This document shows, one piece after another, positions 46,940-64,000 of a stretch of DNA of 64,000 nucleotides. The number at the start of each line of letters is the position of its first letter. Within the stretch, counting starts at the first letter, position 1. The position numbers were made by a program, and so were the translations under genes. Origin of the DNA: an uncultured bacterium (GTDB lineage Bacteria; Babelota; Babeliae; Babelales; Vermiphilaceae); NCBI GenBank assembly GCA_963713925.1, contig OY970212.1, forward strand, positions 1,254,722-1,318,721, read 5' to 3'. The notes beneath the pieces were generated by a model. That model was not told where the DNA came from, ran no database searches, and saw only the letters and a list, made by a program, of their open reading frames with translations.

Positions 46940-47016
46940 ACTGAAATCGACTTCTGATATACATTTCTGGTATGAAGTAAATATCCTTGCATCTGTTTTG
47001 TAAAAAAGGACAAAAA

Positions 47017-48066
47017 ATGAGTTTGAAGCATATCTTTTTTTATTCACTCGCTCTATCTTCCATGTTCCTGACGCACGGCAGCGAGAGCTGTTATGTTGCC
47101 ACTTTCACACCTGATTATACTTTCGAAGCACAATTCACGGCACTGTGGCTCAAGCCGGGAGCTACAAACACTCATTTTGCCGCTGAGGCGTTTCCCCTTC
47201 CTGTGCTTTCTCCTAATTGGGCAATTCATGATATTTGTAAAAAACATCATTTTGCTTTTGACCTCCTGTTACGCACCCAATTTCACAATGCTCATTCAAG
47301 CCTTTTTATAAATTGGGAACATTTTAAGCATGGGGATGCTACAGCTTTTACAACAAATTCAAATAATATGACCGGGCCATTCTTTGAAATTGGTCCGGAT
47401 GCAACTCCTTATTTCACGTCGGCCGGTTCGGTACATTTTGATTTTAATGAAATTAATCTTGATTATGGTCAAAACGTCGAATTTGGTCAGCGGCTACAAA
47501 CAAATCTGTTTGCCGGAATAAGCTTGGTCAAACTCTGTGAAATCTTGCGCTATACCTACATGGGAGCCGACGCCGGTCTGTCTCGAATAATTAAAACGCC
47601 AATCCATTTCAAAGGCGCAGGCCTTCATGCCGGTCTTGATTTCATGTATGACATTGCATGCCGTTTTGAGTTTACCGGCAGATTATCCGCATCAATCCTT
47701 AATGGTAAATCTTCCAACCAAACGACGTATACTTCCTTTTCTCCGGCATTGGTGCTCCTAGATGCTCCAAACCCAAATATCCAAGCGGTGTGTCCTCAAT
47801 GCACCACTTTAGTAGTGCCAGTCTTATTTCAAAAAATCGGTCTGGCATATGCACATGAATGGTGTGAAAGATATATGATAACCATAGGAGTAGGATACCA
47901 AGCACAAGTCTATTTCAATGCGTTACGATCCACTGACATGGGTAGCGAAGTTGTTGCACCGCCGGTTGCCTCAAGCTCAGTTGGGGTCTATGCTCGCACC
48001 TTCCAAAGGAATATCAGTAATTTTTCTCTGACTGGGGCGTATTTTTCATTCGGGATCGGTTTCTAG
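47017..48066 (+). CDS. Lpg1974/Legionella-MOMP-like outer membrane porin
   Basis: Signal peptide, ALWLKP, INLDYGQ, F.GAG...GLD, VGYQAQVYFNAL, terminal GAYFSFGIGF. Confidence 0.75.
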   Translation: MSLKHIFFYSLALSSMFLTHGSESCYVATFTPDYTFEAQFTALWLKPGATNTHFAAEAFPLPVLSPNWAIHDICKKHHFAFDLLLRTQFHNAHSSLFINWEHFKHGDATAFTTNSNNMTGPFFEIGPDATPYFTSAGSVHFDFNEINLDYGQNVEFGQRLQTNLFAGISLVKLCEILRYTYMGADAGLSRIIKTPIHFKGAGLHAGLDFMYDIACRFEFTGRLSASILNGKSSNQTTYTSFSPALVLLDAPNPNIQAVCPQCTTLVVPVLFQKIGLAYAHEWCERYMITIGVGYQAQVYFNALRSTDMGSEVVAPPVASSSVGVYARTFQRNISNFSLTGAYFSFGIGF

Positions 48067-48089: not shown

Positions 48090-48362
48090 TTGAAGATAGT
48101 TACATGCGTTCATGATTTGTTTGTCGGTTCTGAAGTTGAAGAAAAACGGCAATTAATAAAGCTTATACTTCAGAACCTCAGTATCGATGCTGAAAACATC
48201 GTCTGGGAGCTGCATAAGCCATTTGATTTACTACTAAAATGTTCGGAAGATATGCAGTGGCGTTACCTAGTGGATGCATTCAAAGAAGGCAAAGTTGAGT
48301 TTACCATAAGTTTGCAGCATATGAAAACGGTAATTGAATCAATAAAAAACCCCAGTTTTTAG
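48090..48362 (+). pseudogene. C-terminal remnant of a large serine recombinase in joined (attP) configuration
   Basis: LFVGSEVEEKRQLI...KPFDLLLK...WR aligns with the 53518..55020 product. The following LVDAF...EFTISLQHMKTV aligns with 63836..63949. Confidence 0.88.
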
Positions 48363-48729
48363 CCGGTTTTCGTGGGCTTTTAATATCAAGAAAAGAATAT
48401 GACTATTTTTGCTTCTGTTGCTCAATACATGCAATAAACTGAATAAATTTATTTGAATAATATAATTCATCAGACCAGGGATAAAAATTTTGTTGTTTAA
48501 TTCGTGTGTCACACAATTTATTGAAATCACAATCCACACAATTGAGCCATGCTGAAAATAAGCAGATTTGGCGTCAAGGCAGCCTGTTTCAAAATATGGT
48601 TTTTTTGGTATTGCGATCACGTTGCATTGTAATAATGGTCTCACGTACCTTTTTTAATACCTTACCATTATCCCCCATACAACAAGCCACTGCCAACAGG
48701 CTTATCAAAGCAGCAAACATCTTTTTCAT
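48339..48729 (-). pseudogene. Frameshifted secreted hypothetical protein
   Basis: Signal-peptide ORF MKKMFAALIS... and the downstream ORF overlap at an A7 run (T7 on + at 48600-48606). Confidence 0.45.
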
Positions 48730-48958
48730 GTATAAACCTTCAATTTGGACAAAACGTAAAGAACAACATAAAAACATGTTTACAAATATGCAATAGTATT
48801 ACAAAAACGACAACGCCAAAAACCCTGTAACCGTCACCGGAAACCCCTGATAATCACCTCCTGCGGATCTTGACAAATAGAATATATATGATATCATATA
48901 TCTATGCAGATAGAAAAGATTGAACCTGTAAAACAGGAATAAAAAAAGGAGGTAACCT

Positions 48959-50487
48959 ATGAAAACCTATAAAATCGCATTTTTAAGCCTTTTAGGCCTT
49001 AATTTACCAGCTTTTGGTATGATCCAGATGGCAAAGCAAGAGATTGCCCGCCAGGCTATTCCTTTGGCTCAAGCTACTCAACGATTTGTGCAATCCCATG
49101 CAAAAAAATAGCAGTTGCGGCAGGAGCTTCAGCGGTATATGCAGCTCAAGATGATCTGCGGCTTTCAGCCCTCAATCAAGGTCAACAATGGCAAGAAAAA
49201 TATCCGGCAGCATTTCAAGCATGGATTACCAATCCATTATTAAAACGAATTCATTACAACAGCATTTCTCAATATTTGAATGAAAGCGATCGAACTACGC
49301 TCAAAAAACAAAAAATTGCACAAGCATTGGCTGCAAAGGGAATTCCTTTAAATTTTTCGCAAACCGAAGCCGCCTTAATCAAATTTGACAATCCAAGAGA
49401 TGGAAAAGACTCCATTAAACACATAATTAAAAATATTAAAAGCAAATCCTTGTGGCCATTTTTATTCCAAAATACTAAAACTTTAAATGCTATGTTCAAA
49501 TCTGAAAAAGATATGAATGCCAAAGGAAAAATCGTATTGTACCATGCGATCCCTCGCGCTCCTTATGCACTTAATTACATTAATACCCAACTATGTAAAT
49601 TGCAACTACAAGATTCTTTAAATCCCGATTATCTCATGTTAAGAAGCCCTTTGCATGTTAAAACATTAGACTGGAACGGGGCCTTTAAGAAACGGTTATA
49701 TGCACAATCAAAAGGAATAACCGAGAATCTGAGAGATGATGAAATAAGACAAATATTATTACATCAAAATTCTCACCATGATCATTCCACCATCAAAGGT
49801 CATATCACATCGCATCACAATGGATTGAAAGTCGAACTTCCAGCAGAGTTCTCCGAAAGCATTGCTCAATATTTAATATCGGTAAACCCTTCAATAATCG
49901 GCAATGTGGGCTTTTCTGTTGGAGAATGTTCATTAAACTATTGGATCAGTGGTCATTCGCAGATGAAAATTCCAATAACAGATGATAATATTAGGGTACT
50001 GTTCGAATCGAAAAAAATTCCAAACCACCTTTATGAAAAATATAAAGATCGAATCAAAGATTCTTATATACATTTTCGGGATTATGTCAGTGGTCCGAGT
50101 GGTGTTATGTTACAATTATCAATGACCCCAAGACTTCTTGATGAAACGACTTACCCATCATTTCCTGTTGGTTTTAAGAGAACTGTATTTCACAAAAAAC
50201 AAAATAATTCAATTGATTCTTCTTCGAAGATATTAGGTGAATTTGTAACCAACCCATTCAACCTTTCTCTTGACCGTCCCGGAAAAGAAATCGAGCATCC
50301 GGAAAAAATCAATACGCTTCAATTTCGTGTCATTGCTGATCAATCCAAGCTGCTCGATTACACCAACGAAGAAATGCGAGACAACTTTTCAACCAAAGCA
50401 TATATGTTAGATCAAGCAGGGTTGGAATCATTTCAAGCCGAAATCGATCAAATCATGAAAGAATTGGCAGAAGATATGAAAAAATAA
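48959..50487 (+). pseudogene. Secreted hypothetical protein split by a 1-nt frameshift at A7
   Basis: GGAGG RBS, ATG 48959, signal peptide, GCA AAA AAA TAG at 49100-49111. The -1 frame is open from there through ORF 49276..50487. Confidence 0.7.
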
Positions 50488-50544
50488 GACTTGCAAACAA
50501 ACTATAAAAAGCCCCACTTTTTTCAAAGCTTGTCATTACCCAAA

Positions 50545-50718
50545 ATTTAGATAAGCTCCTAACATTCAAAAAAAGATGAATGTTAGGAGCTTATCTAAAT
50601 GCATGAAGAACTAGAAAAATGGGTAAATGAGCAGTGGGGAGATTGCGATTTGGGTGATAATCGTAGAAATAAACGGACAGTAAAAATAGCTCAAAGCATA
50701 ATAAAATGGATAATTTGA
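50545..50718 (+). pseudogene. IS4-family (IS50/Tn5-like) transposase N-terminal remnant preceded by a perfect 24-bp inverted repeat
   Basis: 50599-50718 encodes MHEELEKWVNEQWGDCDLGDNRRNKRTVKIA, matching the W...LGD.R...R start of IS50-like transposases. Confidence 0.65.
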
Positions 50719-50754
50719 GTTGGTTCATATATTAACCTCTATTAATTAAAATGC

Positions 50755-51516
50755 TTACATGCAACCATCAATAGCTTTGACAAAAGCTTTAACTCCAACA
50801 CTTATTAAAGGGCGGACTATTAAGTTTGCAATATTACACAGCTCCAATATTGCTGCAATTTTGCTTAAAGACTTTTCTGAAATATATTTTGCAGTATTGA
50901 CACCAAGGCTATTGAAAATTCTATAACCATCTAATCCCTTACAAGGAAGTAAGTTTAATGCATTCCATATTATATAAGAATTATTTATGTTTTTTAAATA
51001 ATATGGTTTTGGCGATAGATATTTAATTAAAAAGCCAGCGGCCATTCCAAACAGTGGTCCAGCTAAAACAGAAGTTACATCGCGATTTGATGAGACATCC
51101 CAGTCTGAAGGAATGGTGACACTACCAGATGATGGTTTAAAATTTACATGTAAACTAGGAAAGGTCGCAACTCCGCCATTTTTTACTAATTTTTCTTTTA
51201 CTGTATTTAAAATTTCATTTTCATTGGTTTGATCATTTACATTTATAACAATATGAGCTTGAGCATTATTTAAGTAATAATTAAGTAAAGCATGGCCATA
51301 CTCATGAGCAGTACAAGTAATCATATGAGTCGCATATAAAATTGCCAAATCATGAGCAATTTTAAAGGAAGTTTTTACCACATCATTAGATCTGATTTTT
51401 TCTAAAATGGATTTGTTTTGCTCAGCGACTGGAAGCTTTTCAGAGTTTTCTGCAGAGTGAATCTGCTGAAAACCAAGCCCTATAAAAAGTAAGGCAAAAA
51501 ATATTGATTTTTTCAT
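50755..51516 (-). CDS. M50/site-2-protease-like zinc metallopeptidase
   Basis: HEYGH, LAGP and NLLPCKGLDG motifs. Confidence 0.8.
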   Translation of the reverse strand: MKKSIFFALLFIGLGFQQIHSAENSEKLPVAEQNKSILEKIRSNDVVKTSFKIAHDLAILYATHMITCTAHEYGHALLNYYLNNAQAHIVINVNDQTNENEILNTVKEKLVKNGGVATFPSLHVNFKPSSGSVTIPSDWDVSSNRDVTSVLAGPLFGMAAGFLIKYLSPKPYYLKNINNSYIIWNALNLLPCKGLDGYRIFNSLGVNTAKYISEKSLSKIAAILELCNIANLIVRPLISVGVKAFVKAIDGCM

Positions 51517-51844
51517 AATTTTCCTCCATTTTATCTATGTTTATAGGCTATCATTATATTTTCTATCTGTCAAAATGGGGCGACCGTTCCCACCTGGGAA
51601 CCGGAATACTGGTTACTTTTTATAATCTTGCTTATATTGATCACTGAAAAAATACTTTCCTTGCAAATCCCTATAAATTGCATATACTCAACGCAAAATT
51701 GATACTTTTGCATCCAGGAGAAAGCAATGACAGTCTTATATCATCTACATGCGCAACGAGCTTTTACAAGTTCATGTCTGTGCACCAGTTTACGTAATCA
51801 GTAAACTTACCTAACCAATCCACGATATTTTATTTTGATCATTC

Positions 51845-52138
51845 TTGATGTACGTAGTACGTCAATTCTTTAAGGTATGTATGAAGTTGAAAAAACTTTC
51901 TAATGCCCCACCACCTCCTATGGTGTTCTCGAACGAAGAACATAAACGGGTTGTTGCTGTGTTTGCCATCTTGATAGAAATTGATAGAAGGTTGAACATC
52001 ACCGGCAAAAAAGCTAAAAAAGAAAAAGCAAAATTAGAAGGACAATCCTATGACTCACAAACAATAGGCTCACTCACGCCCCGATATTTTAACAGGCCAG
52101 GCTTCAAGCTTTCACCTTGTATAGTCACTTATCATTGA
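51845..52138 (+). CDS. Small protein homologous to element gene 62464..62661
   Basis: E..RVV..F.ILIEIDRRLNIT versus E..RAV.F..LLAKIDRRLNVT. Confidence 0.6.
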   Translation: MMYVVRQFFKVCMKLKKLSNAPPPPMVFSNEEHKRVVAVFAILIEIDRRLNITGKKAKKEKAKLEGQSYDSQTIGSLTPRYFNRPGFKLSPCIVTYH

Positions 52139-52164
52139 TTATGGTACTATTTTATGGTACTATT
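52135..52164 (+). promoter_or_regulatory. hicAB promoter with overlapping direct repeat (probable operator)
   Basis: TTGATT-17 nt-TACTAT with TG extension; ATGGTACTATT twice (52141 and 52154). Confidence 0.65.
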
Positions 52165-52192
52165 ATTAAATAAAATAACTTGCGGGTAGTAT

Positions 52193-52456
52193 ATGAATGC
52201 AAAACAGCGTAAAACACTCAAGCAAATATTCAAGGTTCCTGTACCGTCAGATGTCAGTTGGAGAGATATAGAAACGCTCTTTGAAGGGTTTGGCGGTATG
52301 ATAACAGAGGGAAGCGGCTCACGAGTTCGTGTTGAATTACATGGAGTGAAGGCCGTATTTCATCGACCTCATCCAAAAAAGGTGACCGATAAAGGAGCGC
52401 TTGTATCAGTGCGTAAGTTTTTAATCAATGCGGGGATCAACGATGCTGAAATATAA
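52193..52456 (+). CDS. hicA: HicA-family toxin
   Basis: W.DIE.LF...G..I.EGSGSRV....G....FHRPHP. Confidence 0.92.
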   Translation: MNAKQRKTLKQIFKVPVPSDVSWRDIETLFEGFGGMITEGSGSRVRVELHGVKAVFHRPHPKKVTDKGALVSVRKFLINAGINDAEI

Positions 52457-52757
52457 AGGATATATTGGACACGCTTCATATGATGATGAAGCAAAGACTT
52501 TTCACGGTGAAGTTATTGGCCTGAAAGACGTCATCACCTTTCAAGGCACGACAGTTAAGGCTATTGAAAAAGCCTTCAAAGATTCCATCGACGACTATCT
52601 TGAATGGTGCAAGGAGCGTGGAGAAAAACCTGAGAAAACGTTCTCAGGCAAATTAAACTTAAGAATGAGCGCAGATCTACATGCACACCTCGCTCTTGAA
52701 GCCGAAAAAAAAGGCATAAGTCTCAACGAACTAATCAATCAAAAGCTCAGTAAATAA
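52443..52757 (+). CDS. hicB: HicB-family antitoxin
   Basis: LKYKGY, FHGEVIGLKDVITFQG, FSGKLNLRM...H..L..EA...GISLN. Confidence 0.92.
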   Translation: MLKYKGYIGHASYDDEAKTFHGEVIGLKDVITFQGTTVKAIEKAFKDSIDDYLEWCKERGEKPEKTFSGKLNLRMSADLHAHLALEAEKKGISLNELINQKLSK

Positions 52758-53394: not shown

Positions 53395-53499
53395 TACTTC
53401 GCTCCTCTGTGAGCTACGTATGGCAGGCCAGTCTTCATTACATTGCCCAAGCAAAAACTGCTTGCAATCCGATAAAGTTAAGGCCTTTTTAAATTATGC

Positions 53500-53574
53500 G
53501 TCCCCATCGTCTAACGGTTAGGACATCGCCCTTTCACGGCGGTAATAGGAGTTCGATTCTCCTTGGGGACGCCA
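53500..53574 (+). tRNA. tRNA-Glu(TTC), integration target
   Basis: GTCCCCA/TGGGGAC acceptor, TCGCC-CTTTCAC-GGCGG anticodon arm, GTTCGATTC, encoded CCA. Confidence 0.97.
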
Positions 53575-55020
53575 ATCTATACAATCAGCGTTTTTTAATA
53601 GCATATCAAATGGCTTTTGTGCCTCGTAGACGATATTCCCAGCGTCGACCCTTAGGTTCGATAGTACCAAGTTTATCAATTGTCGTTTTTCCTCAACTTC
53701 AGAACCCATGAATAATTCGTAGGCGTTTTGACACAAAGCAAGCGTATATGCTGCCGTTGAGTAGTAATCGTCCTGTGCTTTATCAAGTCTATCGAGGCGG
53801 CTTTTAACCTCGTTAAGCTCATCCCTCAAGCGTTGGTAAAATTTGTCGTAGTCGCTGTCAGTAATACTCCCTTTGAGCTTATCAAGATAAAGATTATCCA
53901 TCATGAGAGTGATGTTTTTTTGTTCTTTCGTGAGTTTGTCAAACTGTTGGTTATGGAATTCTACCTTATACCGATGAACTTCGCTAAGTGTTTGAATTGT
54001 CTGCCGCATGATATCATCAGGCATTTGCAGCCGCTTAAAAGCTTGTCCCAATTGATCGGTAATAGTTTCTTCGCGCAACCATTTTGCGCCATGCTTGCCA
54101 TTATATTGCGTGCAATGATAATAAACATGCCCTTTATGCTTTTCAGGAGTTATGGCAAGTCCGCATTCCGCACAACGCAATAAGCCTCGATAAATGTATG
54201 GCTTTCCCGCATATTTATATTTTTGCTTTTTGTTAAATCGCGCTTTTGTTTGCTGCACGCGATCAAACATATCTTTGCTGATCAATGGCAGATACTTGTG
54301 GGGATGCAATATGCCATTCCATTCCATATTGCCGTAATAAAAATGATTGTTGAACACTTTATCCAAAAACGCTGCCGTCCATTGGAGACCGTAATCATCC
54401 TTTAATTTTTGGCATAACAGATTCAGAGAGTATGCGCCCGTTGCATACAATTCGAAAGCCTTTTGCACAATCCGTGATTCATATTCAGCGACGACTATTT
54501 CTTTCTTTTCATCTTGCGTGACATTTTTATAACCATATGGAGCTTTGGCAGGCCATTCGCCTCTACGCAATTTTTGTTCTATCGCTCGTTTTACGTTATC
54601 GCTAATGGCGTCTGAAAAATATTTTGCCAATCCAAGACTGATGCTGAACTGAAATTTTTGTGCTGCCGATATTCGGCTATTGAGCACTTGCCCATCATTA
54701 ACGAAATGCAATTCAATGTCATCGTTGAGAGCTTTTTCATATAAAAGGGATATGCGCCTATCAAACACATTACGAGACAGCCGATCGACCTTATCAAAGC
54801 AAACTACAATCTTTTCTTCATGCGCAAGCACAAAATCAAGAATACGTTCAAACTCTTCCCGCTGATTCTTGTACGCACTTTCATCAAAACTGAATGTCTT
54901 TGATATCTGAAACCCTTTGTTGTGACAGTATTTTTCAAGGCGAGCAACCTGTGCGGGCAGAGAATTACCCATTTCTTTTTGCTCTTCAGTGCTCACTCTG
55001 GCTATAAGGATTGCTTTCAT
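53518..55020 (-). CDS. Large serine recombinase (integrated-state allele, 3' end antisense to tRNA-Glu)
   Basis: ARVSTEEQ catalytic Ser, DKVDRLSR, APYGY recombinase domain, CAECG...YYHC zinc ribbon, coiled coil. Confidence 0.95.
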   Translation of the reverse strand: MKAILIARVSTEEQKEMGNSLPAQVARLEKYCHNKGFQISKTFSFDESAYKNQREEFERILDFVLAHEEKIVVCFDKVDRLSRNVFDRRISLLYEKALNDDIELHFVNDGQVLNSRISAAQKFQFSISLGLAKYFSDAISDNVKRAIEQKLRRGEWPAKAPYGYKNVTQDEKKEIVVAEYESRIVQKAFELYATGAYSLNLLCQKLKDDYGLQWTAAFLDKVFNNHFYYGNMEWNGILHPHKYLPLISKDMFDRVQQTKARFNKKQKYKYAGKPYIYRGLLRCAECGLAITPEKHKGHVYYHCTQYNGKHGAKWLREETITDQLGQAFKRLQMPDDIMRQTIQTLSEVHRYKVEFHNQQFDKLTKEQKNITLMMDNLYLDKLKGSITDSDYDKFYQRLRDELNEVKSRLDRLDKAQDDYYSTAAYTLALCQNAYELFMGSEVEEKRQLINLVLSNLRVDAGNIVYEAQKPFDMLLKNADCIDWRPQGESNSYYRRERAMS

Positions 55021-55221
55021 AGGTGACGGACTTACCTCTTTAATGAGTTACAACTTCTGGTATTTCTTTATTTTACCATGGATAAAAGAGGTTCTAAAGG
55101 TAAAAAACACATAAAAAGATCGTTTTTGATAATAACGATCTTTTCTAATAGAAAACCCAATCTGACATAGTTTATCTCACGCCATTTGTTAATTTTGTCA
55201 AATTGTATAAAATATATGTAA

Positions 55222-57807
55222 ATGGACCTTATAAATCAAATGGTGGTTATTATGCCAAATCGGACTGCAGGAGCATCGGCTCGCGACGGTAAGGAAGTAC
55301 AATCTCGTATTAAGATAGATCTGCTCTTGGCCGATGCCGGTTGGAAATTACAGGAAGACTCATCAGGCAAAGCAAATGTTGTGCTTGAAGCACGCGTTAG
55401 GTTTTCTCACAAAGATGCCGGACGTGGTTTTGTCGACTATTTATTGCTCGATAAGGATCGACGTCCGCTTATTGTGCTTGAGGCCAAAAGAGAAGGTATT
55501 GACCCATTATCCGCAAAAGAACAAGCTCGCGAATATGCCCGAGAACTGAGCGCACCATTTATTATTCTTTCTAATGGAAATCTCCACTATCTTTGGGATC
55601 TCAGGGTAGGTAATCCTGAACTAATTTCAAGGTTTCCTTCTCCGGCATCAATTTCTCAATATAAAACACTCAACCCGAATAGTAATCTGCTGGTCTCATC
55701 CTGTATTGATGAAACCTATGTTATGCAGTCCCAAATGCCTGAATTTATACGTGATCCCGCTTATAATAATGCATTGACTCGGGATGAATTTATAAAAAAG
55801 CATGAGTTAAAAAGGCTTTATCCCTACCAAGTAAATGCTATCAAGGCTCTTCAGAAGGCAGTCAAATTCGAAAAAAATAGATTTTTATTTGAAATGGCAA
55901 CCGGTACAGGTAAAACCCTGGTATCTTCAGCTGTAATCAAACTCTTTCTAAAATCAGGCAACGCTCGTAGGATACTGTTTCTTGTAGACAGAATTGAACT
56001 TGAAGATCAGGCACAAAAAGCATTCACAAAATATCTCGGTCGCGATTACAGATCAGTAATATACAAAGAAAATCGTGATTCTTGGGCTAATGCCGAAATA
56101 GTTGTTACCACAATCCAAACATTGCTCGCCGGCGATAGATATAGAAAAGAATTTTCTCCGACCGATTTCCAATTAATAATATCTGATGAAGCCCATAGAT
56201 GCATCGGTGGAAACAGTAGAGCCGTATTTGAATATTTTCTCGGCCACAAACTCGGATTGACCGCTACACCGAGAAATTATCTCAAAGGGTTTGATACGCA
56301 AGCTTCAAATAGCCAACGCGATTATGAAAGAAGATTGCTTTTAGATACCTACAAAACATTCGGTTGCGAATCAGGAACGCCGACATTCTGCTATGATCTT
56401 ATTACAGGCGCACAAGAAGGTTATCTGATCCAGCCGATTGTAGTCGATGCCAGGACCGAGATCACTGCAGAATTACTATCTCAGAAAGGATACGCGGTCA
56501 CTGCAACGGCGCAAAACGGCGAAATCGTCAGCGATGTTTTTAAAGCTCGTGACTATGAAAGAACCTTATTCAATGAAGAGACCAATCGGGCAATGTGCCA
56601 AGCATTTCTCAATGCCGGTCTTTTTGATCCCATTGCGCAATCATATGGGCTCCCATTATTCGGTAAATCAATCGTATTTTGTGTCAGCCAAAACCATGCA
56701 GCACGTGTCACCAATATCCTTAACAAGTTGGCATCAACAAAATGGCCTGAATATTATCGCAATTCAGATTTCGCACAACAGGTAACATCTTTAACCAAAA
56801 ATGCTCAACAAAATACCATCGATTTTTCTAACAACAGATTGAACGGAACTTTCAATCACCTCGAAGGGTATAAAACGAGTAAAACTCGTGTCGTAGTGAC
56901 TGTTGGCATGATGACAACAGGTTATGATTGTACAGATCTTCTGAATATAGCATTGATGAGACCGGTGTTCAGCCCGTCAGATTTTATTCAAATGAAGGGT
57001 CGAGGAACGAGAAAAAATCTTTTTGAATCTATCGACAATGATAGACAATCCGTAACCATCCCCAAAAAGCAATTCAAACTCTTCGACTTCTTTGCTTCTT
57101 GTGAATATTTTGAACATGAACATCTCTATGATGAACAAATCAAGTTGCCTGCTTTTGGAAAAAAGTTGGAGAATGATGATTTTGCAGAAAATATAGTAAC
57201 CGATGGTGAAGATAAAACTAAATTCAACACTCCTATCGATATTAAAATGCCCGATGCTATCAGTTCGTTTTCTGAAAAGAAAATCGGCACTGAAGGCATG
57301 CGCATCGATCGAGAAAGCTTCAAAAAAGCAATCGAAGCAGATATTAAAGGCAATGAAACTTTAAAATCCCTTTGGGTCGATGGCGATATTGACGCAGCTA
57401 AAGACTTTGTCGAAAAAGAAATTTTTAACCGGCCAAAGTATTGTCTTAACTTAGATAAAATTCGTAGCCTTTTTAAAGTTGATCGCCGTATTAACACCAA
57501 AGAAGTTTTAGAAATGGCGTTTGAAGGAAGAGAGACATTCGAAAGCAAAGACGAATTATTGGATGCAGAATTTAGCAAGTTTGTTTCCATAAACAAAATA
57601 GACCAAGATCAATATGACGCAGCAAAAAACTTCTTTAAAGCATATGCAACCGATCAAGAAGTGAGGGACATCATCCAGCGCAATAAGCCGGCAGAATTTT
57701 TCAATTGTCTGTCCTTCGATTTTGAAGAGTACAAAAAACTTAAACAGCATAAAACGATTATACCGCAATATATTCGTGATTATGCTCAAAATCTGATGGA
57801 TTTGTAG
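55222..57807 (+). CDS. hsdR: Type I restriction endonuclease subunit R (EcoEI-like)
   Basis: VDYLL...VLEAK nuclease, MATGTGKT, DEAH, GLTAT, MMTTGYD, QMKGRGTR. Confidence 0.92.
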   Translation: MDLINQMVVIMPNRTAGASARDGKEVQSRIKIDLLLADAGWKLQEDSSGKANVVLEARVRFSHKDAGRGFVDYLLLDKDRRPLIVLEAKREGIDPLSAKEQAREYARELSAPFIILSNGNLHYLWDLRVGNPELISRFPSPASISQYKTLNPNSNLLVSSCIDETYVMQSQMPEFIRDPAYNNALTRDEFIKKHELKRLYPYQVNAIKALQKAVKFEKNRFLFEMATGTGKTLVSSAVIKLFLKSGNARRILFLVDRIELEDQAQKAFTKYLGRDYRSVIYKENRDSWANAEIVVTTIQTLLAGDRYRKEFSPTDFQLIISDEAHRCIGGNSRAVFEYFLGHKLGLTATPRNYLKGFDTQASNSQRDYERRLLLDTYKTFGCESGTPTFCYDLITGAQEGYLIQPIVVDARTEITAELLSQKGYAVTATAQNGEIVSDVFKARDYERTLFNEETNRAMCQAFLNAGLFDPIAQSYGLPLFGKSIVFCVSQNHAARVTNILNKLASTKWPEYYRNSDFAQQVTSLTKNAQQNTIDFSNNRLNGTFNHLEGYKTSKTRVVVTVGMMTTGYDCTDLLNIALMRPVFSPSDFIQMKGRGTRKNLFESIDNDRQSVTIPKKQFKLFDFFASCEYFEHEHLYDEQIKLPAFGKKLENDDFAENIVTDGEDKTKFNTPIDIKMPDAISSFSEKKIGTEGMRIDRESFKKAIEADIKGNETLKSLWVDGDIDAAKDFVEKEIFNRPKYCLNLDKIRSLFKVDRRINTKEVLEMAFEGRETFESKDELLDAEFSKFVSINKIDQDQYDAAKNFFKAYATDQEVRDIIQRNKPAEFFNCLSFDFEEYKKLKQHKTIIPQYIRDYAQNLMDL

Positions 57808-57808
57808 C

Positions 57809-60262
57809 ATGATGAATACTGAAACAAAACGACATATTGATAATGCGCGCAAAGTATTAGTGGGAGTAGTTCCTAATCCCATATCGCAAATTGATCAAAT
57901 CACCAATGCGTTGATTTATAAGTTTATGGACGACATGGATGAAGAAGCGATCAAAGCGGGTGGCGAACCATCATTTTTTGTCGACGATCTTGCACAATAT
58001 TCGTGGACTCGTCTTATGGATCCGGCTTTGGGCAATAACGAACGCCTGAATCTTTATTCGGAAGCACTAACCAAATTTTCTCAAGCAAAACAATTACCTG
58101 AGTTATTTAGAGATATTTTCAAGGCAGCATTTTTGCCTTATCGATCGCCTGAAACACTCGGATTATTCCTTAAAGAGGTTTCTCATTTCAATTATTCTCA
58201 TCCTGAAGAATTGGGCAATGCATATGAATATTTACTTTCGATCATGTCCAGCCAGGGCGATGCAGGACAGTTTAGAACACCCCGACACATAATAGATTTC
58301 ATTGTTTCGGTTGTTAATCCGACCAAAGATGATAAGGTGCTCGATCCTGCTTGTGGCACCGGCGGCTTTTTAGTTAGTGCGTATCGACATATACTCAATC
58401 AACATACTGTACAGAATGCACTTACTCCGGCCGAGCGTAAAAAATTGATGAACAATTTTGAAGGGTATGACATTGACCCGAGCATGGTGCGCATGGCGCA
58501 AGTCAATATGTATCTGCACCAATTTAAAAACCCCAGAATTTATAACTACGACACGCTGACTAGTGACAACCGATGGAATGATACATTCGATGTGATTCTT
58601 GCAAATCCTCCTTTCATGTCGCCAAAAGGAGGCATCAAACCACATAATAAATTCGGTCTTTCATCAAGTCGTTCGGAAGTGCTTTTTGTCGATTACATAA
58701 TGAATCACCTTCGACCAAGGGGCAGGGCCGGCATCATTGTTCCTGACGGCGTTATCTTTCGACCGGGAACAGAGTACAAAACCTTGCGTAAAAATCTTCT
58801 TGAAACTGGGCTTTACGCCGTCGTAAGCTTGCCATCCGGCGTATTTCAGCCATATAGTGGTGTCAATACAAGCATTTTGTTGTTTGATCCGGAACGTGCA
58901 AAAAAAAGCACGGAACTATTGTTCATGAAAATAGAAAACGACGGGTTTGATCTTGGTGCTCAGCGTAGACCGATTGATAAAAATGATCTTCTCAAAGCAG
59001 TAGAAATTTTGAAAGCATGGCAGATGGGTGAAAAAGTAGATGACAAGGCTGCGTTGTATGTTGAAAAATCAAAAATTGCCGAATCAGGAGATTATTATCT
59101 GATTGGCGATCGTTATCGGATAGCACAAACCGATAACAGTAAGTTTAATCCCATTGAACTTGGTAAACTTCTAGTTGAAAAGTCTACTCGAGTTGGTAAC
59201 CCTGCTGATGCTAATATTCAAGTTTGGTCAGTTTCCAACAAACAAGGATTTATCGTATCCAACGAATATTTCGATAAACAGGTTGCTTCTGCTGATATTT
59301 CAAATTATAAGATTATTGGCCCTAGTGATTTCGCATATAATCCATCTCGTATTAACGTTGGATCTATAGCCTTGAATTATACAAGTAATATAGGTGCCGT
59401 AAGCCCTATGTACACAGTGTTTTCAATCAAAAACAATGATATGATCTCAAACCAATATATGTATAGCGTATTAAAGAGTGAAAAAATTAGAGAGTATATT
59501 CTGCACTTATCTCAAGGGACTGTTCGTCAACAATTACGATTTGATGATCTCAAGTTAATTCAAATCCCTCTCCCTCCTCTCGAAGTTCAAAATCAAATAG
59601 TCGCTGAACTCCATGGCTATGCAGGAATTATTTCCAGTGCTCGCAAAATTGTTGAAAATTGGAAACCGAAAATTGATATTGATCCGACATGGCCGATGGT
59701 AAAGTTAGGGGGTGTGTGTGATAATTTTCAATACGGAAGCTCAAAAAAATCATCACTTGAAGGAGAAATACCTTGTCTGAGAATGGGTAACATTCAGAAT
59801 GGTGAGATTGATTGGACTGATTTGAAATACGCTACACCTGATGAGGAATTTGAAAAATATTTTCTGAGTGATGGTGATGTTTTATTCAACAGAACCAATA
59901 GTCCCGCTCTTGTTGGAAAAACAGCAATATTTCGAGGCAAGAAGCCTGCCGTATTTGCAGGTTATTTGATAAGGATATTGTATTACAAAGACAAACTTCT
60001 CGGCGATTATTTGAATTATTGTCTCAATTCAGAGTCTGCAAAAGAATATTTTCAACAGGTTAAAACAGACGGAGTAAGTCAATCGAACATAAATGCACAA
60101 TTACTTTCAAGACTTGAAATCCCCCTCCCCCCTCTCGAACTTCAAAAACAAATAATTGAAAAAATCGAATCAGAGCGCATATTGGTCGAATCTACAAAAA
60201 AATTAATATCGATTTATGAACAAAAAAGCAAAGAAGTAATTGCCAAGCTTTGGAATGAATAA
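57809..60262 (+). CDS. hsdM: Fused type I HsdM-HsdS (N6-adenine MTase + two target-recognition domains)
   Basis: GQFRTPRHI, DPACGTGGFL, NPPF, then two S half-domains each ending IPLPPLE.Q..I. Confidence 0.92.
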   Translation: MMNTETKRHIDNARKVLVGVVPNPISQIDQITNALIYKFMDDMDEEAIKAGGEPSFFVDDLAQYSWTRLMDPALGNNERLNLYSEALTKFSQAKQLPELFRDIFKAAFLPYRSPETLGLFLKEVSHFNYSHPEELGNAYEYLLSIMSSQGDAGQFRTPRHIIDFIVSVVNPTKDDKVLDPACGTGGFLVSAYRHILNQHTVQNALTPAERKKLMNNFEGYDIDPSMVRMAQVNMYLHQFKNPRIYNYDTLTSDNRWNDTFDVILANPPFMSPKGGIKPHNKFGLSSSRSEVLFVDYIMNHLRPRGRAGIIVPDGVIFRPGTEYKTLRKNLLETGLYAVVSLPSGVFQPYSGVNTSILLFDPERAKKSTELLFMKIENDGFDLGAQRRPIDKNDLLKAVEILKAWQMGEKVDDKAALYVEKSKIAESGDYYLIGDRYRIAQTDNSKFNPIELGKLLVEKSTRVGNPADANIQVWSVSNKQGFIVSNEYFDKQVASADISNYKIIGPSDFAYNPSRINVGSIALNYTSNIGAVSPMYTVFSIKNNDMISNQYMYSVLKSEKIREYILHLSQGTVRQQLRFDDLKLIQIPLPPLEVQNQIVAELHGYAGIISSARKIVENWKPKIDIDPTWPMVKLGGVCDNFQYGSSKKSSLEGEIPCLRMGNIQNGEIDWTDLKYATPDEEFEKYFLSDGDVLFNRTNSPALVGKTAIFRGKKPAVFAGYLIRILYYKDKLLGDYLNYCLNSESAKEYFQQVKTDGVSQSNINAQLLSRLEIPLPPLELQKQIIEKIESERILVESTKKLISIYEQKSKEVIAKLWNE

Positions 60263-60284
60263 GAAAAACAAATGGAGGCTTTTC

Positions 60285-61049
60285 ATGGAATCACAATATA
60301 ATCCACAGAGAACCCAAAACATATTCTCAGCTTCGAGCGAAAAACCGTATAAATTGAGTCGCTCAAGAATAGAAACGTTCATGCGCTGCAAACGCTGCTT
60401 CTTTCTTGATCGCAAGTGCGGCACCGACCAGCCTCCTATGTTTGCCTATACCTTGAACAATGCAGTGGATGCATTACTGAAAGCCGAATTTGATCAATAT
60501 CGATTAATTCAAAAGCCTCATCCTTATTTGATTCAAAATGGGGTCGATGCAATTCCATTTGCTCATCCGGAACTTGATAACTGGCGTATAAACCAACGGG
60601 GGATCAAATATCATCACGAGTCGACAAATTTCATCGTGCATGGAGCCATTGATGATGTTTGGATTAACCCGCAGGGCGAATTAATAATCGTCGATTACAA
60701 AGCGACCAGCTCAAAAAAAGAAGTAACCTTGGACGATCGTGATTCCTACAAACGACAGATGGAAATCTACCAATGGCTGTTTCGCAAAAATGGGTTCAAA
60801 GTTTCCGATACGGGCTATTTTGTGTATTGTAACGGCGATGCGAGCGGTAATGATTTCACGGGATCGTTGCGATTCAAAATTTCGCTCTTGCCCTACACGG
60901 GAAATGATTCTTGGATTGAAGATACCATTGCAAAAATTTATGAGCTTCTCATTAATGATGAGCTGCCGGCGCCGACTGAAAACTGTAACTATTGCGGCTA
61001 TCTTGCCGCCGCCACAAAACACGTTCAAAGATACGAATCGGCGAAATAA
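60285..61049 (+). CDS. Cas4-like PD-(D/E)XK nuclease
   Basis: LSRSRI...C.RC, GAIDD...IVDYK, QMEIY, C-terminal CNYC. Confidence 0.85.
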   Translation: MESQYNPQRTQNIFSASSEKPYKLSRSRIETFMRCKRCFFLDRKCGTDQPPMFAYTLNNAVDALLKAEFDQYRLIQKPHPYLIQNGVDAIPFAHPELDNWRINQRGIKYHHESTNFIVHGAIDDVWINPQGELIIVDYKATSSKKEVTLDDRDSYKRQMEIYQWLFRKNGFKVSDTGYFVYCNGDASGNDFTGSLRFKISLLPYTGNDSWIEDTIAKIYELLINDELPAPTENCNYCGYLAAATKHVQRYESAK

Positions 61050-61066
61050 ATGCCTGCTTCACTTGA

Positions 61067-62239
61067 TTAATTGCATCGCAGCTGATGTTTTTTAAAATTT
61101 TTCAATCGCAAGGGTTTAAATTCCTTGAGCTGCTTGCGTATCTCCACGAATGGGCTTTCCATCAATGGCAATGATATGTTCTTAGCATCGGACAAAAGCC
61201 GTTGCCACGATCTATTTTTTGAACTATTCGAGCGTGTGTTTCCCGTAAAGATAGTTCGTAATTCTCTTAAGCCATTATCCTCAGCGGCTTTTTTTAATCC
61301 ATATATCGCGAATAGTTTCAAGATGCTCATGCCGGGATTATGCACAACGAGCGAAGCCAATAAATCAGATGTTTTATGATCCAAAAGTGCAGGTCTGCCT
61401 TGCTCAATTTTATCAAAATAATCCAACAGAATGCTTTGCGAAATATTCCCATCAAAAATAGCCTTGAGCGTGACCTCTTCGACCATGCCGAACTGCGCCA
61501 ATAATGGCTTTAACTTTTGCCGGTTGTTAATCCTCACTTCCATCCTGAGCACCTCAAACTTGCCTTGTTCTCTGAGAATGGCAGCAATATTTTGCTGCAT
61601 GCTATTGTCATCTTCTATGGCTCGCTTGTCGCTTCTTTTTGCCATTTCAAGATCTTTTATTTTATCGTAAAACGTTACTTCGTATGAATTACAATGCCAT
61701 TTAAATGAATGGCCTTCATTACGAAAATCTGTTTGGTTTACGTCAAGCGAACGCGTTACGTTTGCTTCCCTGATTTTGTTGATGTAATGATACGGCGTTG
61801 AGCCATCGATTAGCGTAATATTTTTGCTGAAATGTACGGCCGATAAAAGTGCTTGAGCAGCAAGGGTATAAGCAGTCGTAATTATTCCCATTTCCTCAAG
61901 TTTTTGTTCGAGCTTTTTCATAATGGGTATAAGGTCTTCTTTTGTAAGTTCTTCAAAATTATTTCCGAAATAGAGCTTTGGCAATGACAACTCAACTTTA
62001 AGACTCACATCAAATTCTCCGGTACGGTTTATTCGCTTGGTCAAAGTGAGTCGAGGTTTGTAGTTTCCCTCAAGTTGATCTTTTTTGGTCGGATTCTGCT
62101 TTGCAGAAATATAACCATATCTGCCCAATGGTGCGGCATCATTCAATATAAAGGCAGCGGATGGCTCAAACTTATCGGGATCACGTATGTGAAACATTTG
62201 TTCATTCTGACTCAATATCAGCACTACGGTGTCTATCAT
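61067..62239 (-). CDS. Probable rolling-circle-type replication initiator (phage gene II/CRI-like)
   Basis: MIDTV start, VELSLPKL.FGNN, VHFSKN, VTFYDK, LRMEVR motifs. Confidence 0.65.
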   Translation of the reverse strand: MIDTVVLILSQNEQMFHIRDPDKFEPSAAFILNDAAPLGRYGYISAKQNPTKKDQLEGNYKPRLTLTKRINRTGEFDVSLKVELSLPKLYFGNNFEELTKEDLIPIMKKLEQKLEEMGIITTAYTLAAQALLSAVHFSKNITLIDGSTPYHYINKIREANVTRSLDVNQTDFRNEGHSFKWHCNSYEVTFYDKIKDLEMAKRSDKRAIEDDNSMQQNIAAILREQGKFEVLRMEVRINNRQKLKPLLAQFGMVEEVTLKAIFDGNISQSILLDYFDKIEQGRPALLDHKTSDLLASLVVHNPGMSILKLFAIYGLKKAAEDNGLRELRTIFTGNTRSNSSKNRSWQRLLSDAKNISLPLMESPFVEIRKQLKEFKPLRLKNFKKHQLRCN

Positions 62240-62501
62240 GAGAACTCATTACTTCTTCAAATTTTGCTATCACTGCTTGTTCAATTTGACTGGCTATTGT
62301 GTTGTTGATGGGATGGAAAATGTTGAAACTACCCGTAGAAAATTTTTTAGTCGGATAGGTCAGGCGATAGCCACCTTGCTGTCGGGTGTATATGCCTATT
62401 GATCCCAAGAAAAAAGAATTCTCAAATACAATGCTTGCGAATCCGACCAGCCCTCCTTGTGGCTTAATCGGTATTATTTGTATCTCGCTTATGCGATTCA
62501 T
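62202..62501 (-). CDS. SpoVG-family nucleic-acid-binding protein
   Basis: ISEIQI.P......GFASIVF...F...I......G....YP........FHPIN pattern. Confidence 0.75.
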   Translation of the reverse strand: MNRISEIQIIPIKPQGGLVGFASIVFENSFFLGSIGIYTRQQGGYRLTYPTKKFSTGSFNIFHPINNTIASQIEQAVIAKFEEVMSSHDRHRSADIESE

Positions 62502-62661
62502 TTGACCACCGTTTCGTTACGTTAAGCCTCCGATCAATTTTTGCGAGCAACTCGATAAAATTGACTGCCCGAGCAAGTTCTACGGGCGATAAAGGCCCTG
62601 TGTGCTTCTCAGGAGATTGATCGTTAATGAGTTTTGAACTGACTTTACTTTTTTTAACCAT
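62464..62661 (-). CDS. Small conserved element protein
   Basis: Overlaps the SpoVG start; homolog at 51845..52138. Confidence 0.6.
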   Translation of the reverse strand: MVKKSKVSSKLINDQSPEKHTGPLSPVELARAVNFIELLAKIDRRLNVTKRWSNESHKRDTNNTD

Positions 62662-62720
62662 AAGTAAAGTGTGACGTAAGAGTTACGGGGTCGAGCGAGT
62701 CCCGATCGAGGCTCGTAAAT

Positions 62721-63815
62721 TTATTTCAGGTATTGTGGATTAATGCTGATTTTCGATTTCTCAAGAACTAAAAAATCATTTACTCCCACTTTTTCCAATA
62801 CTACGGAATTGACACCGTTACGGGCTCCATATATGGCGTCCTTATCAGCTCTTTCGAGAGTAAAATGACCGATTTTTTTCCGATTTGCTTTTGCGTAAAT
62901 CTCTTCCAAAGAAAATTTTTTATCTTGCGCTTTGCCGTTTTTGAAGAAGCATTTTAACAAAGAAGCACGTATACTTTTTGGCTCAAAATCAATCGATACA
63001 CCATTGATCTTAAGAATACTTTCGGCCGCTTTATATGTGGGGCAGCCTTGTTTTTTTGGCGTGCCTGCTCGTGACGGCTTCTGCTTTTCGAACCATGCCA
63101 TCGTGTAATCTTCAAGGCGATGCAGGTGGTGTTTGGTCTCAGGAACGGAAATGGATTCGGCTGCTTTTTCAGGATCATGCATGAGATATGCGTTGGCAAT
63201 TGAATCCCAGCTATGCCAAACAGTCGTAGATCTCATTTTTTCAAATCGTTGCTTTTCTTTTTCCCATAAATCGAGGGTTGGAACGAAGGTAAACTGACTG
63301 ATTTCGTTCTTATCGAGAAGTTTTGCGAATTGCCCAACAAATTCATGGTAATTCGGAGAATCCTTCGGAAGAAAAAACAACGCGAATCTTATATTTTTGT
63401 ATTGGCTTGGGGTGGAGTTTAAACCCAATTCCGGCGGAAGATTTTCGGCCGCTTTAAAGCATGCCAATTGTTCACGAAAATCACGTGCTTGTATATCGTA
63501 TTCAGCCGCATATACCTCTATTTTTTCATACACCTCACGAATTTCTTGCCGTGTTTGAACCTCGAGTTGATTGCAAATTTTCGCATCATCCGAATATAAG
63601 GCTATTACAGCGGCTTGCAGCGGCGCCATGAAAGGCAAATCGTAAAGTCCAATGATTTCATATATAACAAGCGTCAAAACGTATGCCGTTTCCGCTTGAT
63701 ATGCTCTTGTAAAAAGAAGTCTCAATTTATCAGCAATAGATTCAAGCTCATGGGAACTCTTGGTTTTTGACACGTTCACTACCTTTTCAAATATCATCAG
63801 CTGTTGTCGTGTCAA
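62721..63815 (-). CDS. Hypothetical protein with probable C-terminal winged-helix domain
   Basis: 364-aa ORF with basic C-terminal ILKING...SLEEIY...AIYGARNGVN region. TTGGAT-17 nt-TATAAT just upstream suggests a later start (~63797). Confidence 0.6.
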   Translation of the reverse strand: MTRQQLMIFEKVVNVSKTKSSHELESIADKLRLLFTRAYQAETAYVLTLVIYEIIGLYDLPFMAPLQAAVIALYSDDAKICNQLEVQTRQEIREVYEKIEVYAAEYDIQARDFREQLACFKAAENLPPELGLNSTPSQYKNIRFALFFLPKDSPNYHEFVGQFAKLLDKNEISQFTFVPTLDLWEKEKQRFEKMRSTTVWHSWDSIANAYLMHDPEKAAESISVPETKHHLHRLEDYTMAWFEKQKPSRAGTPKKQGCPTYKAAESILKINGVSIDFEPKSIRASLLKCFFKNGKAQDKKFSLEEIYAKANRKKIGHFTLERADKDAIYGARNGVNSVVLEKVGVNDFLVLEKSKISINPQYLK

Positions 63816-63835
63816 TTATACCGGTTTACCTTGTG

Positions 63836-63949
63836 TCATCCAACCATTGCGGGTTGGATGCCCAAGGACGAACATACCGTTTTGATATGTTGCAGGCTTA
63901 TGGTAAACTCAATTTCGTAGTTCCTGAATGTATCAACTAGGGGACGCCA
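63836..63949 (-). other. Detached native 3' end of the integrase gene (37 codons + stop)
   Basis: Read from the att core it encodes WRPLVDTFRNYEIEFTISLQHIKTVCSSLGIQPAMVG*, in frame with integrase Trp483. Confidence 0.88.
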
Positions 63950-63997
63950 GTCTTCGCTTATCCACCTTGCGATATTTGGCAAGCTACGGCGGGCAGG
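63950..63997 (+). repeat. Family B palindromic repeat (CTTCGCT...AGCTACGGCGGGCAGG) on the chromosomal side of the att site
   Basis: Closely similar to the reverse complement of 22704-22750; a related copy follows tRNA-Lys (53397-53429). Confidence 0.75.
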
Positions 63998-64000
63998 CGC

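Follow-up and report, generated by a model that had tools for sequence, protein, structure and literature searches.

The window analysed here, the terminal 64,000 nucleotides of a single 1.32-Mb contig, which the source names of homologues (Candidatus Babeliales, Dependentiae) place in Dependentiae, contains a live element whose large serine integrase, Int1, is separated from its own C-terminal tail, and an open reading frame (ORF) at 48090-48362 on the plus strand in which the corresponding body and tail are continuous. This raises the question of how an integrase C-terminus came to be preserved in one piece near a split one, and of what it says about the split. The initial annotation had proposed that the ORF is a fossil integrase fragment keeping the joined (attP-form) C-terminus, and that it serves as an internal control for the tail swap in the live element. 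This proposal holds, as the fragment aligns both with the Int1 body and with the displaced tail. We regard the 273-base relic, with a probability of roughly 70%, as a non-functional 3' remnant of a second integrase gene, kept in one frame and likely derived from a junction between tandem elements.

The live element and its split integrase

The features discussed are collected in Table 1. According to Pfam, Int1 comprises a Resolvase domain (residues 3-156), a Recombinase domain (181-259) and a zinc ribbon (277-321); its last 16 residues are encoded by the antisense strand of tRNA-Glu(UUC). The sequence TGGCGTCCCC is found at 53565-53574 and recurs at 63940-63949, where it is followed by post-tRNA-type sequence, and we therefore delimit a 10.4-kb element at 53575-63949. 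As a 10-mer, the repeat by itself is within chance (30 of 100 shuffles gave at least two matches at ≤1 mismatch), and its significance comes from the context, not from the 10-mer. Sequence like that at 63950-64000 stands after many tRNA genes of the same genome. The minus-strand translation of 63836-64000 ends in ...SEDWRPLVDTFRNYEIEFTISLQHIKTVCSSLGIQPAMVG*.

Table 1. Coordinates of the relic, its surroundings and the live element within the window.
Feature	Position	Strand	Remarks
Outer-membrane protein gene	46987..48066	+	Pfam Legionella_OMP
Integrase body remnant (relic)	48090..48257	+	Corresponds to Int1 residues 427-482, after the coiled coil
W-R codons TGGCGT, uninterrupted (relic)	48258..48263	+	Six bases common to attL/attR in the integrase family
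Tail, 32 codons (YLVDAFKEGKVEFTISLQHMKTVIESIKNPSF) and TAG stop (relic)	48264..48362	+	In frame with the body
Low-GC island right of the relic	48363..52757	.	GC 0.32-0.37, versus 0.40-0.45 to the left
Unclassified ORF in the island	49276-50487	+	No family
Unclassified ORF in the island	50755-51516	-	No family
Element-type small gene	51845-52138	+	Resembles a gene inside the G034 element
HicA/HicB	52193-52456 and 52428-52757	+	Pfam, PHROGs
tRNA-Glu(UUC), target of the live element	53500..53574	+	CCA end is the antisense of the Int1 Trp codon TGG
Int1, intact large serine integrase, 500 aa, integrated form	53518..55020	-	Reads 16 residues past W-R
Displaced Int1 tail at attR	63836..63949	-	Starts with the TGGCGTCCCC copy at 63940-63949
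Native post-tRNA sequence GTCTTCGC...GCTACGG..GGCAGGC	63950..64000	+	Right border of the element

The crossover takes place inside the integrase gene, at the Trp codon, so that the integrated copy reads into the tRNA gene and a tail of 32-37 residues is left at the other end of the element. Judging from the sequence, the circular form of 53575-63949 would join Int1 to the tail at 63836-63949. Int1 belongs with those integrase genes that span their own attP: its ORF runs through the att core and on into tRNA-Glu in antisense, and the displaced 3' coding piece at the far end is in frame with the core and conserved.

As cargo, the element carries a Cas4-like nuclease, genes for type I restriction-modification and unnamed genes. 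Within 55222-61049 lie the genes for HsdR, for a methylase-specificity fusion (817 aa) and for the nuclease, which is of the PD-(D/E)XK type. A single ORF with a Resolvase domain was present among those scanned in 53.5-64 kb.

Genome-wide, about half of the tRNA genes are directly followed by a related structured repeat, G[GT]CTTCGC...GCTACGCCTGGC..GCCAG, which occurs in the window at 53395-53436 and 63950-64000. Read in antisense, this repeat yields a recurring ...SEDW ahead of the attR tails.

Neither a circle junction nor an empty site was seen in the contigs of two public sequencing runs (X1 and X2), a result with no bearing on activity. The contigs of X1 gave scattered pieces of 200-400 nt at ≥99%, none of them across the att site. 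In X2, a 59-nt stretch differing at 3 positions from 48270-48328 and a match to 63870-63945, which becomes unlike the window after 63945, each came from a single contig of another organism.

The relic joins both parts of the integrase in one frame

The relic is translated into 90 residues ending in ...CSEDMQWRYLVDAFKEGKVEFTISLQHMKTVIESIKNPSF*. By BLASTP, residues 1-58 match Int1 residues 427-484 (33/58 identical, E 2e-20), the match ending exactly at W-R, and residues 52-85 match the displaced tail at 63836-63949 (21/34 identical, E 1e-12); the tail is in frame with the body across W-R. The same two partners were recovered at the DNA level, where a repeat search paired 48114-48270 with 53562-53718 (157 nt, 71%) and 48258-48332 with 63875-63949 (75 nt, 79%), with the change of partner at the W codon. 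Direct reading places TGGCGT at 48258-48263, and the 16-mer TTGAGTTTACCATAAG at 48295-48310 is found as its reverse complement at 63897-63912. The initial annotation had asserted the alignment up to W-R, its continuation into the displaced tail and the identity of the 16-mer, and the calculations agree with it on all three counts, with exact coordinates and significant similarity beyond W-R.

The relic lacks the Resolvase catalytic domain, Recombinase domain, zinc ribbon and coiled coil by which a large serine integrase is recognized, and it is assigned to the large serine recombinases as a gene fragment, by C-terminal similarity to members of the family. Pfam and NCBIfam found no family in the 90-aa ORF, and tblastn found no integrase similarity upstream of 48090. 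In a library of 1.84 billion proteins, 379 match the relic at E up to 0.001. The closest full-length relatives of its body are P0028 (51/58 identical, 88%) and P0017 (78%), both of them split forms with tails antisense to tRNA-Glu.

The tail evolves as coding sequence

Fifteen tails taken from the DNA of 10 genomes were compared. Frame 0 contains no stop codon in any of them, against 23 and 39 stops in the other two frames. The proportion of nonsynonymous differences was below that of synonymous ones (pN < pS) in 104 of 105 tail pairs, with means of 0.36 for pN and 0.77 for pS, and in all 105 pairs when only codons 14-25, beyond any likely att footprint, were counted. Variability was highest at third codon positions (0.57 versus 0.46 and 0.31). 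For the relic and Int1 tails as a pair, dN was 0.30 and dS 0.63 on 26 codons, a sample too small to weigh alone. The relic tail matches the displaced Int1 tail and 20 further tails, and 22 tails align without gaps to that of the library protein P0102. The tail evolves as protein-coding sequence; the view of the initial annotation that it is conserved coding sequence and not a chance ORF is thus borne out, the substitution test across homologues that it had suggested included.

P0102 (516 aa) is the only one of 120 database homologues with a clear full tail, two more being doubtful matches to a loose pattern. Its contig was not recovered in the metagenome scan, where the best identity was 74-78%. 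In a structure model built from a 77-row alignment the body of P0102 is well modelled, with long helices at 335-439, and the tail appears, with low confidence, as two short helices (481-491 and 501-510) at pLDDT 59-66. The fold of the model matches 9dxd, 9iu2, 9tep and 4kis (E 1e-18 to 3e-12).

Core and target

The core of the relic, TGGCGTTACC, differs from that of the live element, TGGCGTCCCC, and the initial annotation had read this as a sign of a different target or of decay. The difference is real, but the explanation is unsupported as stated. In eight attL/attR pairs the common block measures 6-12 bases and always includes TGGC plus two bases, being limited to these six in three of the pairs; the crossover must therefore be located there, and only TGGCGT, which we infer to be the crossover core, has to match. 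The relic keeps TGGCGT, like the elements at tRNA-Glu, and the codon that follows W-R varies among tails (P, H, C, Y, G or S), working attR tails included (P, H, C, Y and S), so a different target is not indicated. Nor do the full-length relatives point to one, as P0028 and P0017 read into tRNA-Glu. In the suggested search of tRNA 3' ends, no tRNA of the same genome ends in GGTAACGCCA, and the nearest of its 38 tRNA genes is tRNA-Glu, with 2 mismatches. Decay may have altered the codon after TGGCGT in the relic.

Inverted symmetry around the core was also considered. Across 14 joined or in-silico joined sites no centre was prominent (at best 0.34 of positions paired), and the central dinucleotide therefore cannot be fixed in this way.

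Split integrases in the same genome and in relatives

A second element is present in the same genome (G000:C1:604110-610293). Up to W-R, its integrase (604131-605582) shares 61% identity with Int1, and the tail lies about 6 kb away on the same strand (loci L002, L007 and L009). This integrase reads past W-R into WRLTLGTLRTFRWNTF..., where no tRNA is called, and Rfam found no known RNA at the target. Post-Trp tails like that of the second element recur in P0040, P0053, P0085, L061 and L076, so either the target or a divergent class of tail is conserved across genomes. A third large serine integrase (G000:C1:1065173-1066697, locus L003), 31% identical to Int1, ends W-W-S-stop, with final codons antisense to the tRNA-Ala(GGC) 3' end.

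The layout extends to other genomes. At 16 of 22 distinct places in relatives, the Trp codon and a tRNA gene end (Glu, Asp, Arg) coincide; the same applies to 22 of the 30 metagenome loci with a locatable site (Asp, Gln, Asn, Glu, Leu). Among the 120 database homologues, 62 stop at most 4 codons after the Trp, 43 have tails resembling tRNA antisense and 10 have other tails. A same-strand arrangement with 5.6-10.4 kb between integrase and tail is found in the two elements here, in the genomes G017 and G034, and in five metagenome loci.

A different run-on was noticed in the metagenome locus L058 and in P0095: the intact integrase continues after the Trp into WL..W..FR..DW.N..EYPELT..., conserved between both sources. 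In L058 the same strand also carries a canonical tail, 8 kb upstream, and this locus may represent a live integrase joined to the divergent tail of a neighbouring element.

Joined forms and the origin of the relic

Six joined forms were found in 5 of 41 genomes: the relic, two junctions in G017, and one each in G007, G023 and G010. The joined relics in the last three and in G071 all go with broken integrases. A hit in G090 looked joined but was ruled out on closer inspection. In G017, two joined junctions 7.66 kb apart flank one complete unit, made up of a tail, an orf390 homologue and a frameshifted integrase, with a further decayed unit upstream. This locus (L030, G017:C1:37700-47400) comprises at least three tandemly arrayed units of the element family; no tRNA gene was found within 16 kb to its right. 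The core of the joined relic in G071 (L102, G071:C24) is identical to the tRNA-Glu of relatives over 17 bases, with the consequence that the fourth codon past the Trp is an in-frame TAA; behind it the tail is still open and conserved. Owing to this TAA, the tail is not translatable in every joined copy.

These forms bear on the reading that we prefer, the descent of the relic from a tandem junction. The relic would derive from a lineage targeting tRNA-Glu, in which, within a tandem array, the tail of a newcomer was joined to the integrase gene of an older element; a later deletion would have removed everything upstream of the relic up to the outer-membrane protein gene, leaving a remnant presumably without present function. 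The G017 array, which is readable with its joined junctions, supports a tandem origin. The stop codon of the outer-membrane protein gene precedes the relic ORF by 24 bases, and would therefore mark the left end of the deletion.

To the right, the relic borders on a low-GC island of about 4.4 kb that is probably the remainder of a decayed element, a view that the HicAB genes and the element-type gene fit. PADLOC, NCBIfam and PHROGs gave nothing for the unnamed ORFs of the island. The genes for the HicA toxin and the HicB antitoxin overlap (52193-52757) and form the right edge of the island, immediately ahead of tRNA-Lys. Between the convergent ORFs 49276-50487 and 50755-51516 there is a perfect 24-nt inverted repeat with an 8-nt loop (50545-50600), whose Rfam matches, to microRNA families only, were rejected as spurious.

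The relic and Int1 occupy opposite strands, and tRNA-Lys and tRNA-Glu lie downstream of the relic. To its right we found no integrase, no minus-strand tRNA and no tRNA fragment, and Rfam over 46-64 kb detected no further tRNA or tRNA fragment. With no partner integrase or tRNA left, and given the opposite strand, the relic's own array cannot be reconstructed, which leaves some room for the capture of a circle elsewhere. Synteny comparison yielded no empty or ancestral state of the locus among the relatives examined: the FtsJ-like neighbour is present in 1 of 40 relatives (G008), where the outer-membrane protein gene and the tRNAs are not nearby, and G034 shares with the relic locus only the tRNA-Lys/tRNA-Glu pair and the element.

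There is perhaps one chance in five or so that illegitimate or homologous recombination captured a circular copy of the element away from its att site, with decay afterwards and no tandem array involved. The relic, the unnamed ORFs, the small gene and HicAB match in order and strand the circular succession of tail, small gene and integrase seen in the live element and in G034, and the missing partner tRNA is equally in keeping with such a capture. However, no junction sequence supports it, and the only readable array, that of G017, shows the tandem route.

Less likely still is a small gene kept by selection, a stand-alone C-terminal module of about 85-90 aa acting in trans on a related integrase or on att sites. 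The frame of the relic is open over 90 codons, and P0123, a protein of 86 aa from a 26-kb contig, is 73% identical to the relic with almost the same ends; this likeness could mean a shared old truncation held open by selection. The genome of P0123 was not among the 80 family genomes searched. Short joined-form proteins (56-374 aa) make up 37 of the best 149 library matches to the relic; none of these 37 reaches 450 aa, and 7 of them begin 55-58 residues before the Trp, as the relic does. Yet over all 37 the length upstream of the Trp is spread from 25 to 347 residues, and gene finders are expected to call short open frames in relics. The only start that the relic ORF offers is a mechanical TTG, the first in-frame ATG being residue 55, and neither a promoter-like site facing the ORF nor a terminator after it was found. 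Other relics, moreover, are frameshifted or interrupted by stops.

A related idea, about as doubtful as the kept small gene and if anything slightly more so, is that joined copies are more than scars: either the tail of a newcomer restores the resident integrase, or body-plus-tail modules such as the relic and P0123 act in trans. If this were true, tandem accretion would reactivate resident integrases and mobilise whole arrays.

Finally, it is very improbable that the relic comes from a lineage with its attachment site outside the integrase gene, never split and with the tail as a normal C-terminus, for although the relic is unsplit and its TAC codon differs from tRNA-Glu, its closest full-length relatives (P0028, 51/58, and P0017) are split and read into tRNA-Glu, it retains the TGGCGT core, the Trp is the break point in all but a few of the 120 homologues, and no intact chromosomal integrase with a canonical tail was found in the 41 and 80 genomes searched.

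The value of the relic is that of an independent copy, located in this very genome, of what the live element should encode as a circle. By virtue of it, the case for the tail swap moves from an argument about reading frames to one about conserved sequence. Considered alongside the relatives, the relic confines the crossover to six bases, namely the Trp codon and the one after it, antisense to the CCA end of the tRNA. The family of elements piles up in tandem and decays, and many short joined-form ORFs come to be listed as proteins. The natural pair of integrase forms, one with its own tail and one with a tRNA-encoded tail, is a candidate switch of direction or of activity (on/off), which would concern a class of serine integrases directed at tRNA genes.

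Comparison with known systems

The canonical large serine integrases (SPbeta, Bxb1, phiC31, Listeria LI/A118) have the same Resolvase, Recombinase and zinc ribbon domains as the enzymes described here. In the canonical phages attP lies outside the integrase gene, whereas here it lies inside. Myxophage Mx8 (IntP/IntX) reportedly carries attP within its integrase gene, so that integration rewrites the C-terminus, and in both respects it resembles the present elements; the Mx8 enzyme, however, is a tyrosine recombinase, unrelated in sequence and chemistry to these serine integrases.

Integrase genes that span attP are on record for the tyrosine enzymes of Mx8 and SSV, according to the relevant passages of PMC4383910. 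The SSV-type archaeal integrases and those of the RAP44-like Riemerella phages are similar to ours in that integration into a tRNA gene cuts the attP-spanning gene, as set out in the pertinent parts of PMC4383910 and PMC12169736, but they too are tyrosine recombinases, unlike the serine family here. The latter source places the site of the RAP44-like phages at nucleotides 25-43 of the integrase gene, not at its 3' end. Serine integrases were not known to target tRNA genes according to the sections of the 2014 Islander paper (PMC4383910) consulted. Our literature search found no report of tRNA-gene-targeting serine integrases whose displaced tail is conserved, and the DsiB paper came closest.

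DsiB is the ssrA-specific serine integrase of Dehalococcoides genomic islands, described in the portions of McMurdie et al. (2011, PMC3146451) drawn on here. There, the 3' end of dsiB always overlaps attL, the stop codon is located outside the island and the islands occur in tandem; the authors proposed that full function of dsiB may be confined to the circle and to copies lying downstream of an adjacent island, which then provides the 3' fragment. The systems differ in several respects, as far as those portions go. DsiB targets the tmRNA gene at its T-loop, with a 20-bp repeat, whereas the target here is the CCA end of tRNA genes, with 6-12 common bases. DsiB is accompanied by a second, small serine recombinase, DsiA, whereas the live element has only one ORF with a Resolvase domain; neither the tmRNA target nor the DsiA partner that mark the DsiB-type ssrA islands is found here. 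In the same text the C-terminal portion of DsiB is called divergent and conservation of its tail is not reported, while the displaced tail here is conserved. Compared by arrangement and not by sequence, the relic and the G017 array show exactly what was proposed, in that text, for dsiB. The split-integrase architecture was already anticipated for DsiB by McMurdie et al. (2011), and the relic itself is ordinary.
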